Assembly (NCBI GenBank): GCA_963812155.1 | Contig: CAWETW010000002.1 | Span: forward strand, 96,001-160,000 | Reading direction: 5' to 3' | DNA: 64,000 nt | Source of the DNA: Vulcanimicrobiota bacterium | GTDB taxonomy: Bacteria > Vulcanimicrobiota > Vulcanimicrobiia > Vulcanimicrobiales > Vulcanimicrobiaceae | Shown here: positions 18,691-58,472 of the stretch, piece by piece | Layout: every line of letters starts with the position of its first letter | Position numbering within the stretch: the first letter of the stretch is position 1 | Notes under the pieces: generated by a model | What the model was told of the DNA's origin: nothing | Databases searched by the model: none | The model's input: the letters and a program-made list of their open reading frames with translations, nothing else | Translations under genes and position numbers: made by a program

Positions 18691-20700
18691 CTAACGAACC
18701 GCAAGCGCACGCGCGGCGATCCGGACGCGATAGATCCACACCAGCAGCGCACCGATGACGACGCCCACGACCAAGCCGTTGAAAACGCGCAACAGTGAAA
18801 TCCCCAGCGGCGTGTGCAGGTGCGAAAACGTGTCGATGACGTCGCCGAGTCCGACGCCGGCCCCCAGGGCGAGCAGCCACCCGACGATACGGCGATGCGC
18901 GACGACGAGCGCCGAGACGAGCATCATGCACGGAACGCCGATGAGGAATTCCTTGAAGCGGGGGCGCACGCTGAGCACGCTCGTCAGGGCGTGGCGAAGC
19001 ACGAGTTCGAACTGCGACGGCGACACGTCGCTATCGTTCCCGCTGCGGACCACGAGGAGGGCGCCTGCCGCCACGACGATCAGTCCGGCAAGCAACTGGT
19101 AGGCGAGGACGGGTGAGAGAAAAACGTCGCGCGGACGCTCGACGCCCGACCCGAAGCGGCGATCGAAGATGTAGATGCAGAGCGAGATCAACGGCGGCAA
19201 CGCGAGGATGAGTTTCACCCCGCGGAAACGCTCGATCTCCTCCATTGCCAGCGGCGAACTCATGATTCCGACGACCACGAGCGCGCCCAGCAGTGCGACC
19301 GCAGTCGCGACGAGCGCCCAGCCGATGCATCGCAGCAACTGCGTGCCGGTGCGCTCCGCCGGCTCTTCGGTAAAGGCCGGCATCAGCGCGACGAAGGCGG
19401 CCGTTGCAAAAAGAAGTGCGCCGCATAGCGCAATCACGGAACGCACGAACAGGTCGTGATGCGAGAGCACGCCCGCGGCGTAGAGCAGCACGGTCGAACC
19501 GTACGCCGCGACCGCCCACCAGCGGCGGTACCAGCCGAAAAAAGATAGCAACAGCACGAAGATCGACGGGACGGCCAGGGTTGCGATGCCGACGAGCACC
19601 GCGTTGTTGCCGTGATACAGCGGAATCGGCGTCGCCCGGCCGAGGCGAAAACCAGCCGCCTTGAGTTGGCCGGCGATCTGAGCGACCATCTCGACGTTGG
19701 TTTTTTCGATCGAGAGATCGCCGTCTTGATGTTCCCACGGACGCAAGTAGACGACGCGTACGTTGCGTTCGCGCACGCCCAACGCGTAGCGCGCGACCAC
19801 CTGGTCGAGCTTGATCTTGTCGAGTTCGGTCCGTGCGATCGCCTGCACTCGCACGGTGCGACCCGGGATGAGCTTCGCCAGCGTCTCGCTGCCTTTTTGA
19901 ATTTGGCTGTCGTCGTACGTCTCGATCGCCCCGAAGTTGAAGACGTAACGCTTGAACACGGCCGCCATGTCTTCGAGATGATCCGGATATCCGAGCACCT
20001 GATTGCGCAATCCGAAAAACATCACCGTCGAAACCTTCGCATCGTAGCGAAACACGTCGGCAATCGTCGCTTCGATTTGCGGTTGCGCAAACCGCTCGTC
20101 GTTTTGAAAACGCGGAATAACCAGCAAGCCCAGCCTGCGCGCGAGCAGTATTTGACTGGACGGAATCCCGAGGGCGGTGGTGTTGAAGTAGTCGATTTGC
20201 GTGCGCACCTCGAGCAGCCACGGACGCGTCGCGCGCAATACCTTCACGCTCTTGGGCATGAAGTGCAGCCGCAGTTCGCCGTAGTATCGACGGTAGTTAG
20301 ACCCATCGCTGATCAGTAGATAGACGGCGCCCGGCTCGATGCGCTGCTGCGCGACGAGGCGTGCCAAAAGCGGATCGCGGATCGGCGAAATCTGTGCTTG
20401 CGCGATCAGCGCCGCCCCGGTAGTGGCGGAAGCCTTGCCGTCGTCGCCGACGTTCGCGCCCAGCTCTTCGGTGAGCGCGAGCGACGTCAGGCCGGCGCGC
20501 CGCAGCGCGATAAGGAACGCGGCGGGGTTGTAGTTGTAGGAACGCGCCAGTGCATCGAAGTCTTGGAAATCCATCGCCAGTTCGACGCGCCGCGCGTGCG
20601 ACTCGGTACGCGCGCGATACGCCGCGACTGCGAGTGACGCCGCAAGAGCCACAAGCAAGACGATCGCGGCATAGCGGGTGCGCGGTGGAAAGAAGGTCAC
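18691..20700 (-). CDS. DUF5693-like membrane protein
   Basis: RERNVRVVYLRP, FRGVK, VRPRFKEFLIG, DTFSHLHTP; upstream of csaB. Confidence 0.8.
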   Translation of the reverse strand: MTFFPPRTRYAAIVLLVALAASLAVAAYRARTESHARRVELAMDFQDFDALARSYNYNPAAFLIALRRAGLTSLALTEELGANVGDDGKASATTGAALIAQAQISPIRDPLLARLVAQQRIEPGAVYLLISDGSNYRRYYGELRLHFMPKSVKVLRATRPWLLEVRTQIDYFNTTALGIPSSQILLARRLGLLVIPRFQNDERFAQPQIEATIADVFRYDAKVSTVMFFGLRNQVLGYPDHLEDMAAVFKRYVFNFGAIETYDDSQIQKGSETLAKLIPGRTVRVQAIARTELDKIKLDQVVARYALGVRERNVRVVYLRPWEHQDGDLSIEKTNVEMVAQIAGQLKAAGFRLGRATPIPLYHGNNAVLVGIATLAVPSIFVLLLSFFGWYRRWWAVAAYGSTVLLYAAGVLSHHDLFVRSVIALCGALLFATAAFVALMPAFTEEPAERTGTQLLRCIGWALVATAVALLGALVVVGIMSSPLAMEEIERFRGVKLILALPPLISLCIYIFDRRFGSGVERPRDVFLSPVLAYQLLAGLIVVAAGALLVVRSGNDSDVSPSQFELVLRHALTSVLSVRPRFKEFLIGVPCMMLVSALVVAHRRIVGWLLALGAGVGLGDVIDTFSHLHTPLGISLLRVFNGLVVGVVIGALLVWIYRVRIAARALAVR

Positions 20701-20738
20701 GGCACCGCCTCTTCGACCGACGCCGCCGAAGCCCCCGG

Positions 20739-20776
20739 AATAGCAAGAGGACCCGCCGTTTGGCGAGTCCCCTTGC
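20739..20776 (-). terminator. 15-bp hairpin with weak U tail (terminator/attenuator candidate)
   Basis: GCAAGGGGACUCGCC-AAAC-GGCGGGUCCUCUUGC-UAUU. Confidence 0.55.
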
Positions 20777-20898
20777 CGTCGCGTATGCGCAATGCCCTTT
20801 TTGTCGGGTTCGCGCATACCGGGTGTGGGCGACGCTTGTGTTGACGCTTCGCGCTCGCTCTTAGCCCACGTGAGCGGCGCACGTGTCGTTCAGACAGT
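20740..20898 (-). ncRNA. Candidate structured leader RNA/sRNA
   Basis: Three consecutive hairpins and a 6-bp loop complement between a sigma70-type promoter and DUF5693. Confidence 0.5.
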
Positions 20899-20903
20899 TC
20901 ACT

Positions 20904-20929
20904 AAACTAACCAAAAAATGGCACTTTTG

Positions 20930-20933
<4 letters not shown>
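20904..20933 (-). promoter_or_regulatory. Sigma70-type promoter
   Basis: TTGACA-N18-TAGTTT in an AT-rich patch; -35 overlaps the enoyl-CoA hydratase stop codon. Confidence 0.65.
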
Positions 20934-21694
<761 letters not shown>

Positions 21695-26398: not shown

Positions 26399-27742
26399 AT
26401 GCAGGTTCGTCGCCTCACGTTCGTTGCCGCGCTGGCCGCCGCAGGCTGCTCCGGCGGCGGCGGCTCCGGAGCAAGCGCCCCCGCCGCGCCGCCGGTCGCC
26501 GTCCCGACGCCGACGCCGACGCCGACGCAGCATCGGAAGATCGAGCACGTCATCATCGTCATTCAAGAAAACCGCAGCTTCGACAATTTCTTTTCGACGT
26601 ATCCGGGCGCCGACGGCACTGCCTACGGCAAAACGCACACCGGCGGCTCCGTCGCTATGGTGAAGAGTCCCCTCGTCACGCGCGACGTCGGTCACTCCTA
26701 CGCAACCTTTTCCAACGAGTACGATCGCGGAAAGATGGACGGATTCGACAGCGTTCACTTTTCGTCGGGCGGTACCACCGGCAACTACATTTTCCGGTAC
26801 GTGGACCCGCGCGACATCGCACCGTACTGGACCATGGCTCGCCGCTACGTCCTCGCCGATCACATGTTTCAAACGCAGGGCAGCGGCAGTTTCACCGGTC
26901 ACCAGGATCTCATCGCCGGCAGCACCGCGATTAACGATGACGAAAGCCTGGTCGACTTTCCGTCGGCCATCCCGTGGGGCTGCGACGCGCCCGATGGAAC
27001 CACCACGTCGCTCTTGACGCGAAACCGCGGATACGTGCACCGCGGCGGACCGTTCCCGTGCCTGAGCTATCCCACGCTGCGAGACCTCCTCGATGGCGCA
27101 AAGTTATCGTGGAAATATTACGTTCCACCGTTTCGTCCCGGAACGTACGGACAGATCTGGAACGCGTTCGACGCGATTCACGCCGTCCGTTATAGCGCGG
27201 AGTGGCATAACAACATCTCGTCACCGAATACGAACTTCTTCCGGGATATTAAAGCGAATAGATTACCGGCGGTATCGTGGGTGGTTCCGATTGCGTCGAA
27301 CTCCGACCATCCGGGCGGCGGCGGCACGACCGGGCCGTCGTGGGTTGCGTCGATCGTCAATGCTGTGGGATCCAGCCGGTATTGGGAAAGCAGCGCGATC
27401 GTCGTCGTATGGGACGACTGGGGCGGACTTTACGATCACGAGCGGCCGCCGCAGATCGACTACCAGGGATTAGGTTTTCGGGTGCCCTGTCTCATCGTGT
27501 CGCCGTACGCACGCAGCGGATACGTGACGCACACGCAGTACGAGTTCGCGAGCATTTTGAAATTCATCGAAGACAATTGGGCGCTCGGACGCATCAATGG
27601 AAACGACCAGCGCGCCGCCAGCATCGGCGACGCGTTCGACTTCACGCAGACGCCGCGCCGCTTTTCTCCGATTCCCGCAGCCTTCGGCGAATCGTTCTTC
27701 ATGCGACAGCCGCCGTCCGACGAGCCGGTAGACACCGAATAA
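26399..27742 (+). CDS. Secreted phosphoesterase (phospholipase C/AcpA-like) lipoprotein, paralog 1
   Basis: AAGC lipobox, QENRSFDN, GKMDGF, WDDWGG.YDH, GLGFRVP. Confidence 0.88.
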   Translation: MQVRRLTFVAALAAAGCSGGGGSGASAPAAPPVAVPTPTPTPTQHRKIEHVIIVIQENRSFDNFFSTYPGADGTAYGKTHTGGSVAMVKSPLVTRDVGHSYATFSNEYDRGKMDGFDSVHFSSGGTTGNYIFRYVDPRDIAPYWTMARRYVLADHMFQTQGSGSFTGHQDLIAGSTAINDDESLVDFPSAIPWGCDAPDGTTTSLLTRNRGYVHRGGPFPCLSYPTLRDLLDGAKLSWKYYVPPFRPGTYGQIWNAFDAIHAVRYSAEWHNNISSPNTNFFRDIKANRLPAVSWVVPIASNSDHPGGGGTTGPSWVASIVNAVGSSRYWESSAIVVVWDDWGGLYDHERPPQIDYQGLGFRVPCLIVSPYARSGYVTHTQYEFASILKFIEDNWALGRINGNDQRAASIGDAFDFTQTPRRFSPIPAAFGESFFMRQPPSDEPVDTE

Positions 27743-27814
27743 GCGCGAAGCGACCACGGTCAACAATCGCGTCTGCAAGAGGGAATCGAGCGAAACGCGC
27801 GATAGGGCGTACGC

Positions 27815-29161
27815 ATGACACGTGTCTCGCGCGCAGTATGCTTCGTCGTCGCCGCTGCGATGAGCGGGTGCGGAGCTGGAAGCGGCCCAAGCGGCTCGAT
27901 GCCGGGCCTGCCGCAGATGTCGACTGCATTCCCGAATTCGCCGCCGCCGGGAAACCAAAAGATCAAGCACGTCGTCATCGTGATTCAGGAGAATCGCAGC
28001 TTCGACAATTTGTTCGCCACGTTTCCGGGCGCAGACGGCACGACGGTGGGCCTCCTGCACACCGGAAAGCACTTTAAACTCATTAAAGGAACGTTGCGGG
28101 GCAAAGAGCTGAATCACATGCGTTCCGGCTATCGCACCGAATACGACGGCGGCAAAATGGACGGCTTCGACCTCATCGGTTTCGGATCGAGCGGAAACGA
28201 CGGGCCCGCGGGCCGCTATCCCCTGCGCTACGTCAATCCGGCCGATATTGCGCCCTATTGGACGATGGCTAAAGATTACTCGCTCGCCGACCACATGTTT
28301 CAGACGCAAGGCAGCGGCAGTTTCACCGCCCATCAAGAACTGATCGCGGGCGGCACGGCATTCGCGCCGACCAAGAGCCTAATCGACTTTCCTTCGGGGG
28401 GACCGTGGGGATGCGATGCTCCGTCGAAAACGGTCACGACCTACATCACGACGTCCGGCGAATTCTTTTTCAATAAAGGGCCCTTCCCGTGTTTGAGCTA
28501 CAAGACGATGGCCGACGTGCTCGATCCGAAGGGCCTGTCGTGGAAGTATTACGTGCCGCCGTTGCTCGTGCCGGGGAGCAGCGGTTTTCTTTGGAACGCG
28601 TTCGACGCGATCAAAAAAGTTCGCTACGGAGCCGACTGGGCGAACGTCATTTCACCGGAGACCGACGTTTTCGACGATGTGAAACATAATCGGCTTCCCG
28701 CCGTTTCATGGGTCGTTCCGTGCGGACAAAACTCCGACCACGCGGCCGGCACGGACACGGGGCCGTCGTGGGTTGCCGCCATCGTTAATACGATCGGCCA
28801 CAGCCCGGCGTGGTCGAGCACGGCGATTATCGTGGTATGGGACGATTGGGGCGGCTACTACGACCACGTTCCGCCGGCGTTCATCGACGATCAGGGCGGT
28901 CTCGGTTTTCGCGTACCGATGATCGTCATTTCGCCCTACTCGAAAAGCGTCGGGTACATCTCGCACACGCAGTATGAGTTCGGGAGCATCCTGCGCTTCG
29001 TCGAAGACAACTGGGGTCTCCAGCGGCTCGGCTCGACCGACGTGCGAGCGACGAGCATCGGAGATATGTTCGATTTCACGAAACCGGCGCGTGCGTTTAC
29101 GACGATACCGGCGCGCGGCTATCATACGTGTCCGCAAGGCGATCCGCCCGACGATGCGTAG
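27815..29161 (+). CDS. Secreted phosphoesterase lipoprotein, paralog 2
   Basis: MSGC lipobox, QENRSFDN, GKMDGF, WDDWGGYYDH, GLGFRVP. Confidence 0.88.
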   Translation: MTRVSRAVCFVVAAAMSGCGAGSGPSGSMPGLPQMSTAFPNSPPPGNQKIKHVVIVIQENRSFDNLFATFPGADGTTVGLLHTGKHFKLIKGTLRGKELNHMRSGYRTEYDGGKMDGFDLIGFGSSGNDGPAGRYPLRYVNPADIAPYWTMAKDYSLADHMFQTQGSGSFTAHQELIAGGTAFAPTKSLIDFPSGGPWGCDAPSKTVTTYITTSGEFFFNKGPFPCLSYKTMADVLDPKGLSWKYYVPPLLVPGSSGFLWNAFDAIKKVRYGADWANVISPETDVFDDVKHNRLPAVSWVVPCGQNSDHAAGTDTGPSWVAAIVNTIGHSPAWSSTAIIVVWDDWGGYYDHVPPAFIDDQGGLGFRVPMIVISPYSKSVGYISHTQYEFGSILRFVEDNWGLQRLGSTDVRATSIGDMFDFTKPARAFTTIPARGYHTCPQGDPPDDA

Positions 29162-57149: not shown

Positions 57150-58472
57150 ATGGCAAATCTCGAACTCGACGACATTCAAAGCGGCGCGCTTCGGCCGCGC
57201 CCCACCCCTTTTGCCGCGACCTACATCATCCTCCGAATCGACGATCGCACCGCCGGCCGCGCGTTGATGCGCCGCCTGAGCGGCGTCGTCGCGTCGGCCG
57301 CGCATCCCGAGAGTCCCGCGCGCGATACGTGGGTGAGCGCGTCGCTAACGTTTCAAGGGCTCAAGAAACTGGGCGTTCCACAACCTTCGCTCGATAGTTT
57401 TTCACCGCAATTTCGGCAAGGCATGGCGGCGCGAGCGCGACAGTTGCACGACGTCGGCGAGAACGCTCCCGAGCACTGGGAGAAGCCGCTCGGCACGGAC
57501 GACGTGCACGTCGTGTTGACGGGAATTTCGACCGATGCGGCGCGGCTGGAAACGGCGATCGGCCGGGCGCGCGAAGCGTATCAGACGACGCCTGGAATCA
57601 CCGCGATTTGGCGGCAAGATTGCTACGCACTTCCGACCGAGACCGAGCCGTTCGGTTTCAAGGACGGCATCAGCCATCCGGCGATCGAAGGCAGCGGCAT
57701 TCCCGGAACGAACCCGCACGAGGTTCCGTTGAAGGCGGGCGAGTTCGTTCTCGGATACCCCGACGAATACGGCGGCATTCCGGCGATTCCGCAGCCGGAC
57801 GTGCTAGGCCGCAACGCGAGCTACATCGTGTTTCGAAAACTGTACCAGCGGGTTGCAGCATTTCGCCAATACCTCAAAGCAAACGCGTCGAATCCCGGCG
57901 ACGAGGAGTTTTTGGCGGCCAAGATGATGGGACGCTGGCGCAGCGGGGCTCCGCTCGCGTCCTGTCCCGTTCACGACGATCCTGCGATCGGCGCCGACTC
58001 GGCGAAGAATAACGATTTCTTGTTCAAAGCGGACGATCCGCTCGGATACAAGACGCCGCTCGGATCGCATATCCGTCGCGTGAATCCCCGCGACGCCGAC
58101 GTCGCGGGCGTCGCGCGAATTCATCGCATGATTCGGCGCGGGACGGCGTACGGGCCGCTCTTGCCCGAGGGCGTGCTCGAAGACGACGGTGCAGATCGAG
58201 GGCTCATGTTCGCGTTCGTCGGCGCGAATCTCGGCCGTCAGTTCGAATTCGTCCAGTCCGAATGGATGAACGACAGCGCCTTTTTTGGTGGCGCGTCGGA
58301 GCAAGATCCGATCGCCGGCGCGGCCGACGACAGTGGAATATTTCCGATACCGCGCAGGCCGATCCGAAGGGTCCTTGCGGGGCTGCCGCGATTCGTCGTC
58401 ACGCGCGGCGGAGAGTACTGCTTCCTGCCGAGTCTGAGCGCGCTGCGCTGGCTCGGAGACCTCGACGCCTAG
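57150..58472 (+). CDS. Dyp-type heme peroxidase
   Basis: FGFKDGISHP (GxxDG), GEFVLGY, KMMGRW, SHIRRVNPR, MIRRG..YG, RQFEFVQ. Confidence 0.92.
   Translation: MANLELDDIQSGALRPRPTPFAATYIILRIDDRTAGRALMRRLSGVVASAAHPESPARDTWVSASLTFQGLKKLGVPQPSLDSFSPQFRQGMAARARQLHDVGENAPEHWEKPLGTDDVHVVLTGISTDAARLETAIGRAREAYQTTPGITAIWRQDCYALPTETEPFGFKDGISHPAIEGSGIPGTNPHEVPLKAGEFVLGYPDEYGGIPAIPQPDVLGRNASYIVFRKLYQRVAAFRQYLKANASNPGDEEFLAAKMMGRWRSGAPLASCPVHDDPAIGADSAKNNDFLFKADDPLGYKTPLGSHIRRVNPRDADVAGVARIHRMIRRGTAYGPLLPEGVLEDDGADRGLMFAFVGANLGRQFEFVQSEWMNDSAFFGGASEQDPIAGAADDSGIFPIPRRPIRRVLAGLPRFVVTRGGEYCFLPSLSALRWLGDLDA

Follow-up and report, generated by a model that had tools for sequence, protein, structure and literature searches.

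A conserved structured RNA of Vulcanimicrobiaceae that probably acts as a standalone small RNA

A new structured RNA family

The 64,000-nt stretch of Vulcanimicrobiota bacterium DNA analyzed here (the window) carries on its minus strand an element that, as judged from its sequence and that of its relatives, is a conserved non-coding structured RNA constituting a new family of Vulcanimicrobiaceae (Eremiobacterota). We consider this RNA likely (probability roughly 0.8) to be an independently transcribed, standalone sRNA because convergent genes follow a number of its copies, its terminator is predicted to persist in alternative folds, promoter-like motifs lie upstream, the DUF5693 gene that usually follows has a conserved motif of its own, and the overlapping open reading frame is not conserved. 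Extra copies, present in 18 of the 117 genomes found to contain the RNA, were also counted toward this reading, which had been the second option of a first-pass annotation made from the DNA alone. The element is intergenic and non-coding and, at the sequence level, has its own predicted promoter and terminator.

The minus-strand gene order is an enoyl-CoA hydratase gene (ECH; 20930–21694, minus strand, assigned by Pfam ECH_1 and synteny), the RNA element, the DUF5693 gene (18691–20700, minus strand, assigned by Pfam), a polysaccharide pyruvyl transferase gene (csaB) and ileS. Both immediate neighbors are usual, not obligatory. The minus strand of the region folds with a minimum free energy of −86.9 kcal/mol (z = −4.95), a value equaled by none of 200 shuffled sequences; the folding z-score of the plus strand is −3.29.

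The promoter hexamers and helices that the first-pass annotation had named are all present on the minus strand, at the positions it gave. A predicted σ70-type promoter (20904–20933) consists of TTGACA (−35, 20933–20928) and TAGTTT (−10, 20909–20904) separated by an 18-nt spacer. Downstream lies an optional 5′ hairpin, P1 (20880–20851), whose stem is variable and whose loop hexamer GUGGGC (20869–20864), a predicted lid, is complementary to nucleotides 20830–20825, the putative pseudoknot partner. That segment overlaps a second stem, P2 (20834–20829 paired with 20782–20777), which is followed directly by a 15-bp terminator-like hairpin (20776–20743, the terminator region extending to 20737) with a weak U tract, as in its own lineage. 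The claim that these parts form a new structured RNA is borne out by the conservation of the element, its lack of an Rfam match and the covariation of P3 and the terminator described below.

Conserved core and terminator

The conserved core (20777–20834, minus strand) comprises the 6-bp P2, a 9-nt C-rich bulge (20828–20820) and P3 (20819–20783), the last of which bears, in the long form found in the window, a lineage-specific apical A-rich hairpin (20808–20795). Core and terminator hairpin, in this order, are common to all 24 aligned ECH-DUF5693 spacers; that alignment dropped one locus with a long insertion (L020) and one duplicate (L030). Among 29 diverse copies, 92.4% of the cells that should be paired are paired, compared with 80.8% in shuffles (0 of 500 as high) and 30–48% in slid controls. 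Two-sided changes are found at 15 of 24 base pairs in this set, including 6 of 8 in P3 and 8 of 10 in the terminator, so that the covariation and conservation sought by the first-pass annotation in orthologous spacers are both present: distal P3 and the terminator covary, and the core is conserved. P1, like distal P3 and the terminator, covaries freely. Five of the six P2 pairs are invariant in the 29 copies because the search required the P2 sequence, and the paired positions of P2 and the P3 base are identical in 233 of 244 rows, a figure biased in the same way; most copies were gathered using the core motif itself, which inflates the apparent invariance of the core. Divergent copies found with a covariance model share the layout while showing A-U pairs at the P3 base and single substitutions in the bulge, and one copy carries a compensatory change in P2.

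In 134 of the 136 rows with a short form, P3 is capped by a GNRA loop. Weak U tracts follow the terminator hairpin in 58 of 85 copies of the long form, which has the A-rich P3 insertion, and strong ones in 117 of 149 short forms. A dif-like DNA site was considered and rejected: a nearby inversion of GC skew is absent, and the G·U pairs and GNRA loops favor an RNA.

An overlapping 61-aa open reading frame (20697–20882) might itself have been the conserved element. In 238 copies, this frame is uninterrupted and has a start codon 82 times, and the two alternative frames 97 and 62 times, core lengths occupy all three classes modulo 3, and the encoded peptide has no match in Pfam; the reading frame is thus not conserved.

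Distribution

A covariance model built from the core and terminator matched 117 of 151 Vulcanimicrobiaceae genomes in a family-wide sample, with two or three copies per genome in the 18 that have extra ones. In a first survey the model matched 58 of 71 genomes of the family and 1 of 79 others, the lone outside match being weak and devoid of the bulge; 29 candidates per genome were scored, so distant forms may be missed. With blastn, 28 of 61 genomes were matched, among them every one of the 14 other members of the genus; one match (L028) falls off the RNA, and a match outside the family but within the same order (genome G040, locus L026) is a real copy without the 5′ hairpin. Searching genome contigs for an exact 19-nt match gave at least 121 loci, mostly in records titled Eremiobacterota or Vulcanimicrobiota, of which six lacked the 3′ half and were dropped, and a gapped scan of metagenomes added 120 loci. 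Viral contigs gave no match in one search and two in another, both of them chance matches on inspection. Apart from the copy at L026, the RNA is confined to Vulcanimicrobiaceae, and the functions proposed for it are predictions.

The blastn and family-wide tallies include genomes flagged as unpublished (G033, G035, G189 and G224), and loci L021 and L025, with rows of the same sequence, are counted in the alignment, synteny, promoter, reading-frame, terminator, P1 and CGAA tallies; no conclusion rests on the flagged genomes, L021 being one among several examples without P1. Two probable chance matches were left out of the promoter, reading-frame and terminator counts (L169 and L214), the former also out of the P1 counts.

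Across the family, the DUF5693 protein drops to about 50–60% identity while the RNA stays almost letter-identical. The RNA has been cleanly lost in some genera, and in 3 of 11 model-negative family genomes examined ECH and DUF5693 adjoin, leaving no space for it. Such clean losses, together with copies that lack P1, offer natural comparisons between genomes that have the RNA and those that lack it, and between forms with and without the lid.

Several individual loci are unusual. Extra copies L033, L369, L370, L365 and L082/L083 lie near an integrase, a recombinase domain, AbiEii, a tRNA or a resolvase-like reading frame, which suggests that extra copies may be carried on islands. In loci L031 and L032 of one genome (G023), P1 is replaced by a different 5′ region, common to both, which spans about 100 nt and has hairpins of its own. 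A repeat insertion of about 200 nt separates ECH from the RNA in L020 (1422–1876), and a degenerate copy (L348, 1515–1593, minus strand) has lost the bulge and is now a long, almost perfectly paired hairpin ahead of the terminator.

The 5′ hairpin and putative pseudoknot

P1 was evaluated sequence by sequence because MAFFT and RNAalifold failed to recover it as a consensus helix. The motif TGGG(C/T), complementary to the edge of the bulge, occurs upstream of the core in 198 of 221 copies, compared with 11.6% of shuffles, and is mostly located 29–36 nt 5′ of the core. It lies inside a hairpin in 176 of those 198 copies (68% in shuffles), with a median z-score of −1.5 and all 30 shuffles beaten by 35 of 198, which is modest support for P1; complementarity beyond 6 nt is not enriched. 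A C-to-U variant of the loop in six copies preserves a G·U pair with the bulge edge, and in L234, L242 and L265, where the hexamer is interrupted, the complementarity appears by eye to reach further into the bulge. Among the 221 copies, none showed two-sided compensation in the pseudoknot. The possible pseudoknot of the first-pass annotation is therefore plausible by loop-bulge complementarity, and we regard it as well motivated by co-conservation, without two-sided covariation. In such an H-type pseudoknot the A-rich linker between P1 and the core (20835–20850, minus strand, defined by alignment) would form loop 3. The pseudoknot would compete with P2, to which it is close in energy, for 2 nt.

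Copies without P1 keep an intact core. Some of them carry a promoter-like motif immediately before the core. Several copies linked to DUF5693 are among those without P1.

Several tRNAs of the same genome, namely tRNA-Ile(GAT), one CAT tRNA, three tRNA-Val, tRNA-Tyr and tRNA-Leu(TAG), end in a hexamer complementary to the P1 loop. The resemblance of the pseudoknot helix to the top of their acceptor stems is probably a coincidence; mimicry of a tRNA acceptor is not supported, as it would leave both the rest of the invariant core and the copies lacking P1 unexplained.

Transcription and genomic context

The −35 hexamer in the window contains the ECH stop codon. A consensus promoter scan made no call here and read 20937–20920 as terminator-like, a hairpin that is not kept in relatives. 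Of 15 loci in the same genus, 13 retain the pattern TTGACA-N17/18-TAnnnT, and 141 of 234 upstream regions contain one of three promoter-like patterns, chosen post hoc, versus 7% of shuffles. These motifs sit just 5′ of P1, mostly 55–76 nt before the core and in four cases 4–12 nt before it; in L344 a σ70-like promoter directly precedes the core. One pattern resembles the SigH promoter consensus, and the genome encodes a SigH orthologue. In three metatranscriptome runs, 5–6% of the element's sequence words were present, and contigs from relatives cover the core in all three runs and the flanking genes too in two, with neither ends nor strand defined.

The sequence before DUF5693 contains a conserved CGAA, predicted to be part of a separate promoter (20698–20715, minus strand), 11 nt before the GTG start codon. 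CGAA occurs 10–13 nt before this GTG in 161 of 193 loci, versus 1.9% in shuffles; just 15 of the 161 have a motif resembling a Shine-Dalgarno sequence, and a C-rich run is often present. DUF5693-csaB-ileS is thus likely to have its own alternative-sigma promoter and a nearly leaderless mRNA.

The linkage of the RNA to this operon bears on whether it acts in cis. DUF5693 lies downstream in 194 of 244 rows, a linkage that reflects one ancestral locus. Twenty-seven loci without DUF5693 had at least 600 nt of downstream sequence, and 25 of them were scanned with Pfam, L214 and L229 being left out. The next gene is convergent and Pfam-supported in 12 of these, co-directional in 3 and without a clear call in 10, so that the RNA is not consistently 5′ of a co-directional gene, as a riboswitch would be. 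Six of the 12 convergent loci, together with L377, represent one lineage where an alpha/beta hydrolase gene, metX-like in our reading, converges on ECH and a full RNA that includes P1. Nested folding of 215 copies gave a median terminator probability of 0.998 with or without the pseudoknot strands; when these strands were withheld, it predicted no antiterminator and left the terminator intact in every copy; an alternative fold that disrupts the terminator is accordingly not evident.

Comparison with known RNAs

Rfam 15 covariance models applied at gathering score to the whole window matched tRNA alone and nothing on the element. No match was obtained at E ≤ 10 in the region 20600–21050, nor for the motif in 10 homologous loci, which answers the comparison with Rfam that the first-pass annotation had proposed. 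The element is not the tmRNA, RNase P RNA or SRP RNA of its genome, each of which scores over the cut-off elsewhere, nor its 6S RNA, for which a full-length candidate sits on contig C3 instead, below the cut-off (57585–57773, locus L035; 38.2 bits versus an Rfam cut-off of 46.4). The tmRNA, missed by ARAGORN, also lies on C3 (921658–922012, L036; 122 bits in Rfam).

T-box antiterminators are bulged helices beside a terminator, in RNAs that carry the T-box motif, stem I and a specifier. Likewise, the bulged helix of the element adjoins a terminator, and the operon downstream contains ileS. The T-box motif, stem I and specifier are all lacking, the bulged helix does not overlap the terminator, and the T-box model RF00230 has no match in the genome, which is 84% complete. 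In the pistol ribozyme, a 5′ hairpin loop pairs into an internal loop of a downstream helix, and the linker is A-rich. The new RNA shares the A-rich linker and, as predicted, the pairing of a 5′ loop with a downstream bulge or internal loop, but it has no Rfam match, other conserved residues, a loop of variable size and an optional P1. The hallmark of type I and type III toxin-antitoxin RNAs is a conserved adjacent or antisense toxin gene; this class was rejected on the grounds that neighbors vary and no reading frame is conserved on the RNA's own strand, antisense reading frames having been judged by eye.

Among sRNAs, the closest parallels are RsaE (PMC2790875) and the multicopy LhrC (PMC4132741), which pair through C-rich seeds. 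The parallel extends to a short RNA, a stable fold that leaves a conserved C-rich motif unpaired, and sibling copies. The new RNA differs in having no sequence or Rfam kinship with them, in presenting a 9-nt bulge between helices rather than UCCC or CU-rich sites, and in containing an internal complementary lid. RydC (PMC3985669) is a pseudoknotted sRNA whose 5′ domain pairs with its target and whose pseudoknot is opened by Hfq, the opening being tied to function. Here too a small RNA with a pseudoknot, in this case predicted, occurs in a bacterium that encodes Hfq, but its conserved surface lies on the 3′ side, it can do without the 5′ hairpin, and the two RNAs are not homologous.

Eremiobacterota is a widespread, mostly uncultured soil phylum for which literature searches returned no described regulatory RNA, nor did they return this motif. 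A term search of the main text of PMC11109978 did not find it either; supplements of such motif surveys may hold it. Set against Rfam and the searched literature, we classify the element as a new family within the bacterial structured sRNAs.

Proposed mechanism and alternatives

We tentatively favor a mechanism in which the sRNA pairs with target RNAs through its bulge, access to which is gated by the pseudoknot; the chain as a whole remains short of even odds. The helix-bulge-helix and terminator module would be transcribed from the upstream promoter as part of an RNA of about 160 nt. The P1 loop would pair with the bulge edge, forming the pseudoknot before P2 closes and masking the bulge as under a lid. 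Once released, possibly with the help of Hfq, the C-rich bulge would pair with G-rich stretches of target RNAs and regulate them in trans. Pairing through the bulge is favored because the bulge is C-rich and unpaired, has an internal complement and occurs in sibling copies, and because the genome encodes Hfq. A seed masked by its own pseudoknot would be an unusual form of sRNA gating, and the size of the RNA (80–160 nt) makes in vitro tests feasible at once. A search for targets in five genomes yielded 102 perfect 9-nt complements of the bulge, none of them conserved in three or more genomes besides the opposite strand of the RNA itself. The best match at a start region in the RNA's own genome, with crude gene calls and in this single genome, is to a repeat-protein gene, and complementarity to rRNA, 6S RNA, tmRNA, RNase P RNA and SRP RNA is at most 8 nt.

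The invariance of the RNA reaches into the paired positions of P2 and the P3 base, which fits recognition by a protein or ligand at least equally well. A standalone sRNA serving as a protein decoy or scaffold, whose invariant helix-bulge-helix would be recognized by a protein and whose pseudoknot would switch the binding site, is thus possible, if somewhat unlikely; it stands close behind pairing because the five genomes yielded no conserved perfect target, complementarity to stable RNAs is so short and the paired bases are invariant. The near-constancy of P2 and the P3 base beside a freely covarying P1, distal P3 and terminator, the prevalence of GNRA loops, and the location of some extra copies near integrase, recombinase or AbiEii genes agree with a decoy, whereas the complement to the bulge that the RNA itself carries points to a pairing surface, and neither a conserved partner gene adjoining the copies nor a candidate protein was found. 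The invariant junction nucleotides, H-type pseudoknot layout, A-rich linker, GNRA loop and pistol-like topology could instead belong to a standalone ligand-binding or catalytic RNA, which we think improbable, as no ribozyme or aptamer in Rfam matches and the core is intact where P1 is missing. Also doubtful, though marginally less so, is a self-gated RNA in which the 5′ hairpin locks the core co-transcriptionally and a metabolite or protein decides when the bulge is released. If true, it would be a riboswitch-like trans-acting sensor without an expression platform, of which mobile islands capture a lid-less, always-on form.

The remaining alternatives place the element in an mRNA. The first-pass annotation had named, as its first option, an aptamer and expression platform controlling DUF5693-csaB-ileS; a ligand would stabilize the pseudoknot and alter read-through into this operon or into antisense of convergent genes. 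The frequency of DUF5693 downstream, the competition of pseudoknot and P2 at similar energies, and the weak U tract of most long forms would accommodate such a cis-acting riboswitch or attenuator. It has little probability in view of the lack of a predicted antiterminator, the often convergent downstream genes with no common metabolic theme, the DUF5693-linked copies without P1, the three genomes in which the same gene pair lacks the RNA, and the separate conserved motif before DUF5693. Least probable of all is a 3′-UTR or terminator-associated element that stabilizes the upstream mRNA, usually that of ECH. The element does follow ECH in 199 of 244 rows, and some extra copies follow other co-directional genes, but promoter-like motifs lie directly upstream of it, the upstream gene is divergent in several copies, and its conservation goes far beyond what a terminator needs.

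Other observations

Elsewhere in the window, two adjacent paralogous lipoprotein-like genes (26399–29161) encode proteins of about 447 aa, and contig C3 of the same genome holds more paralogues. By eye, these proteins look like members of a phosphoesterase or phospholipase C family.
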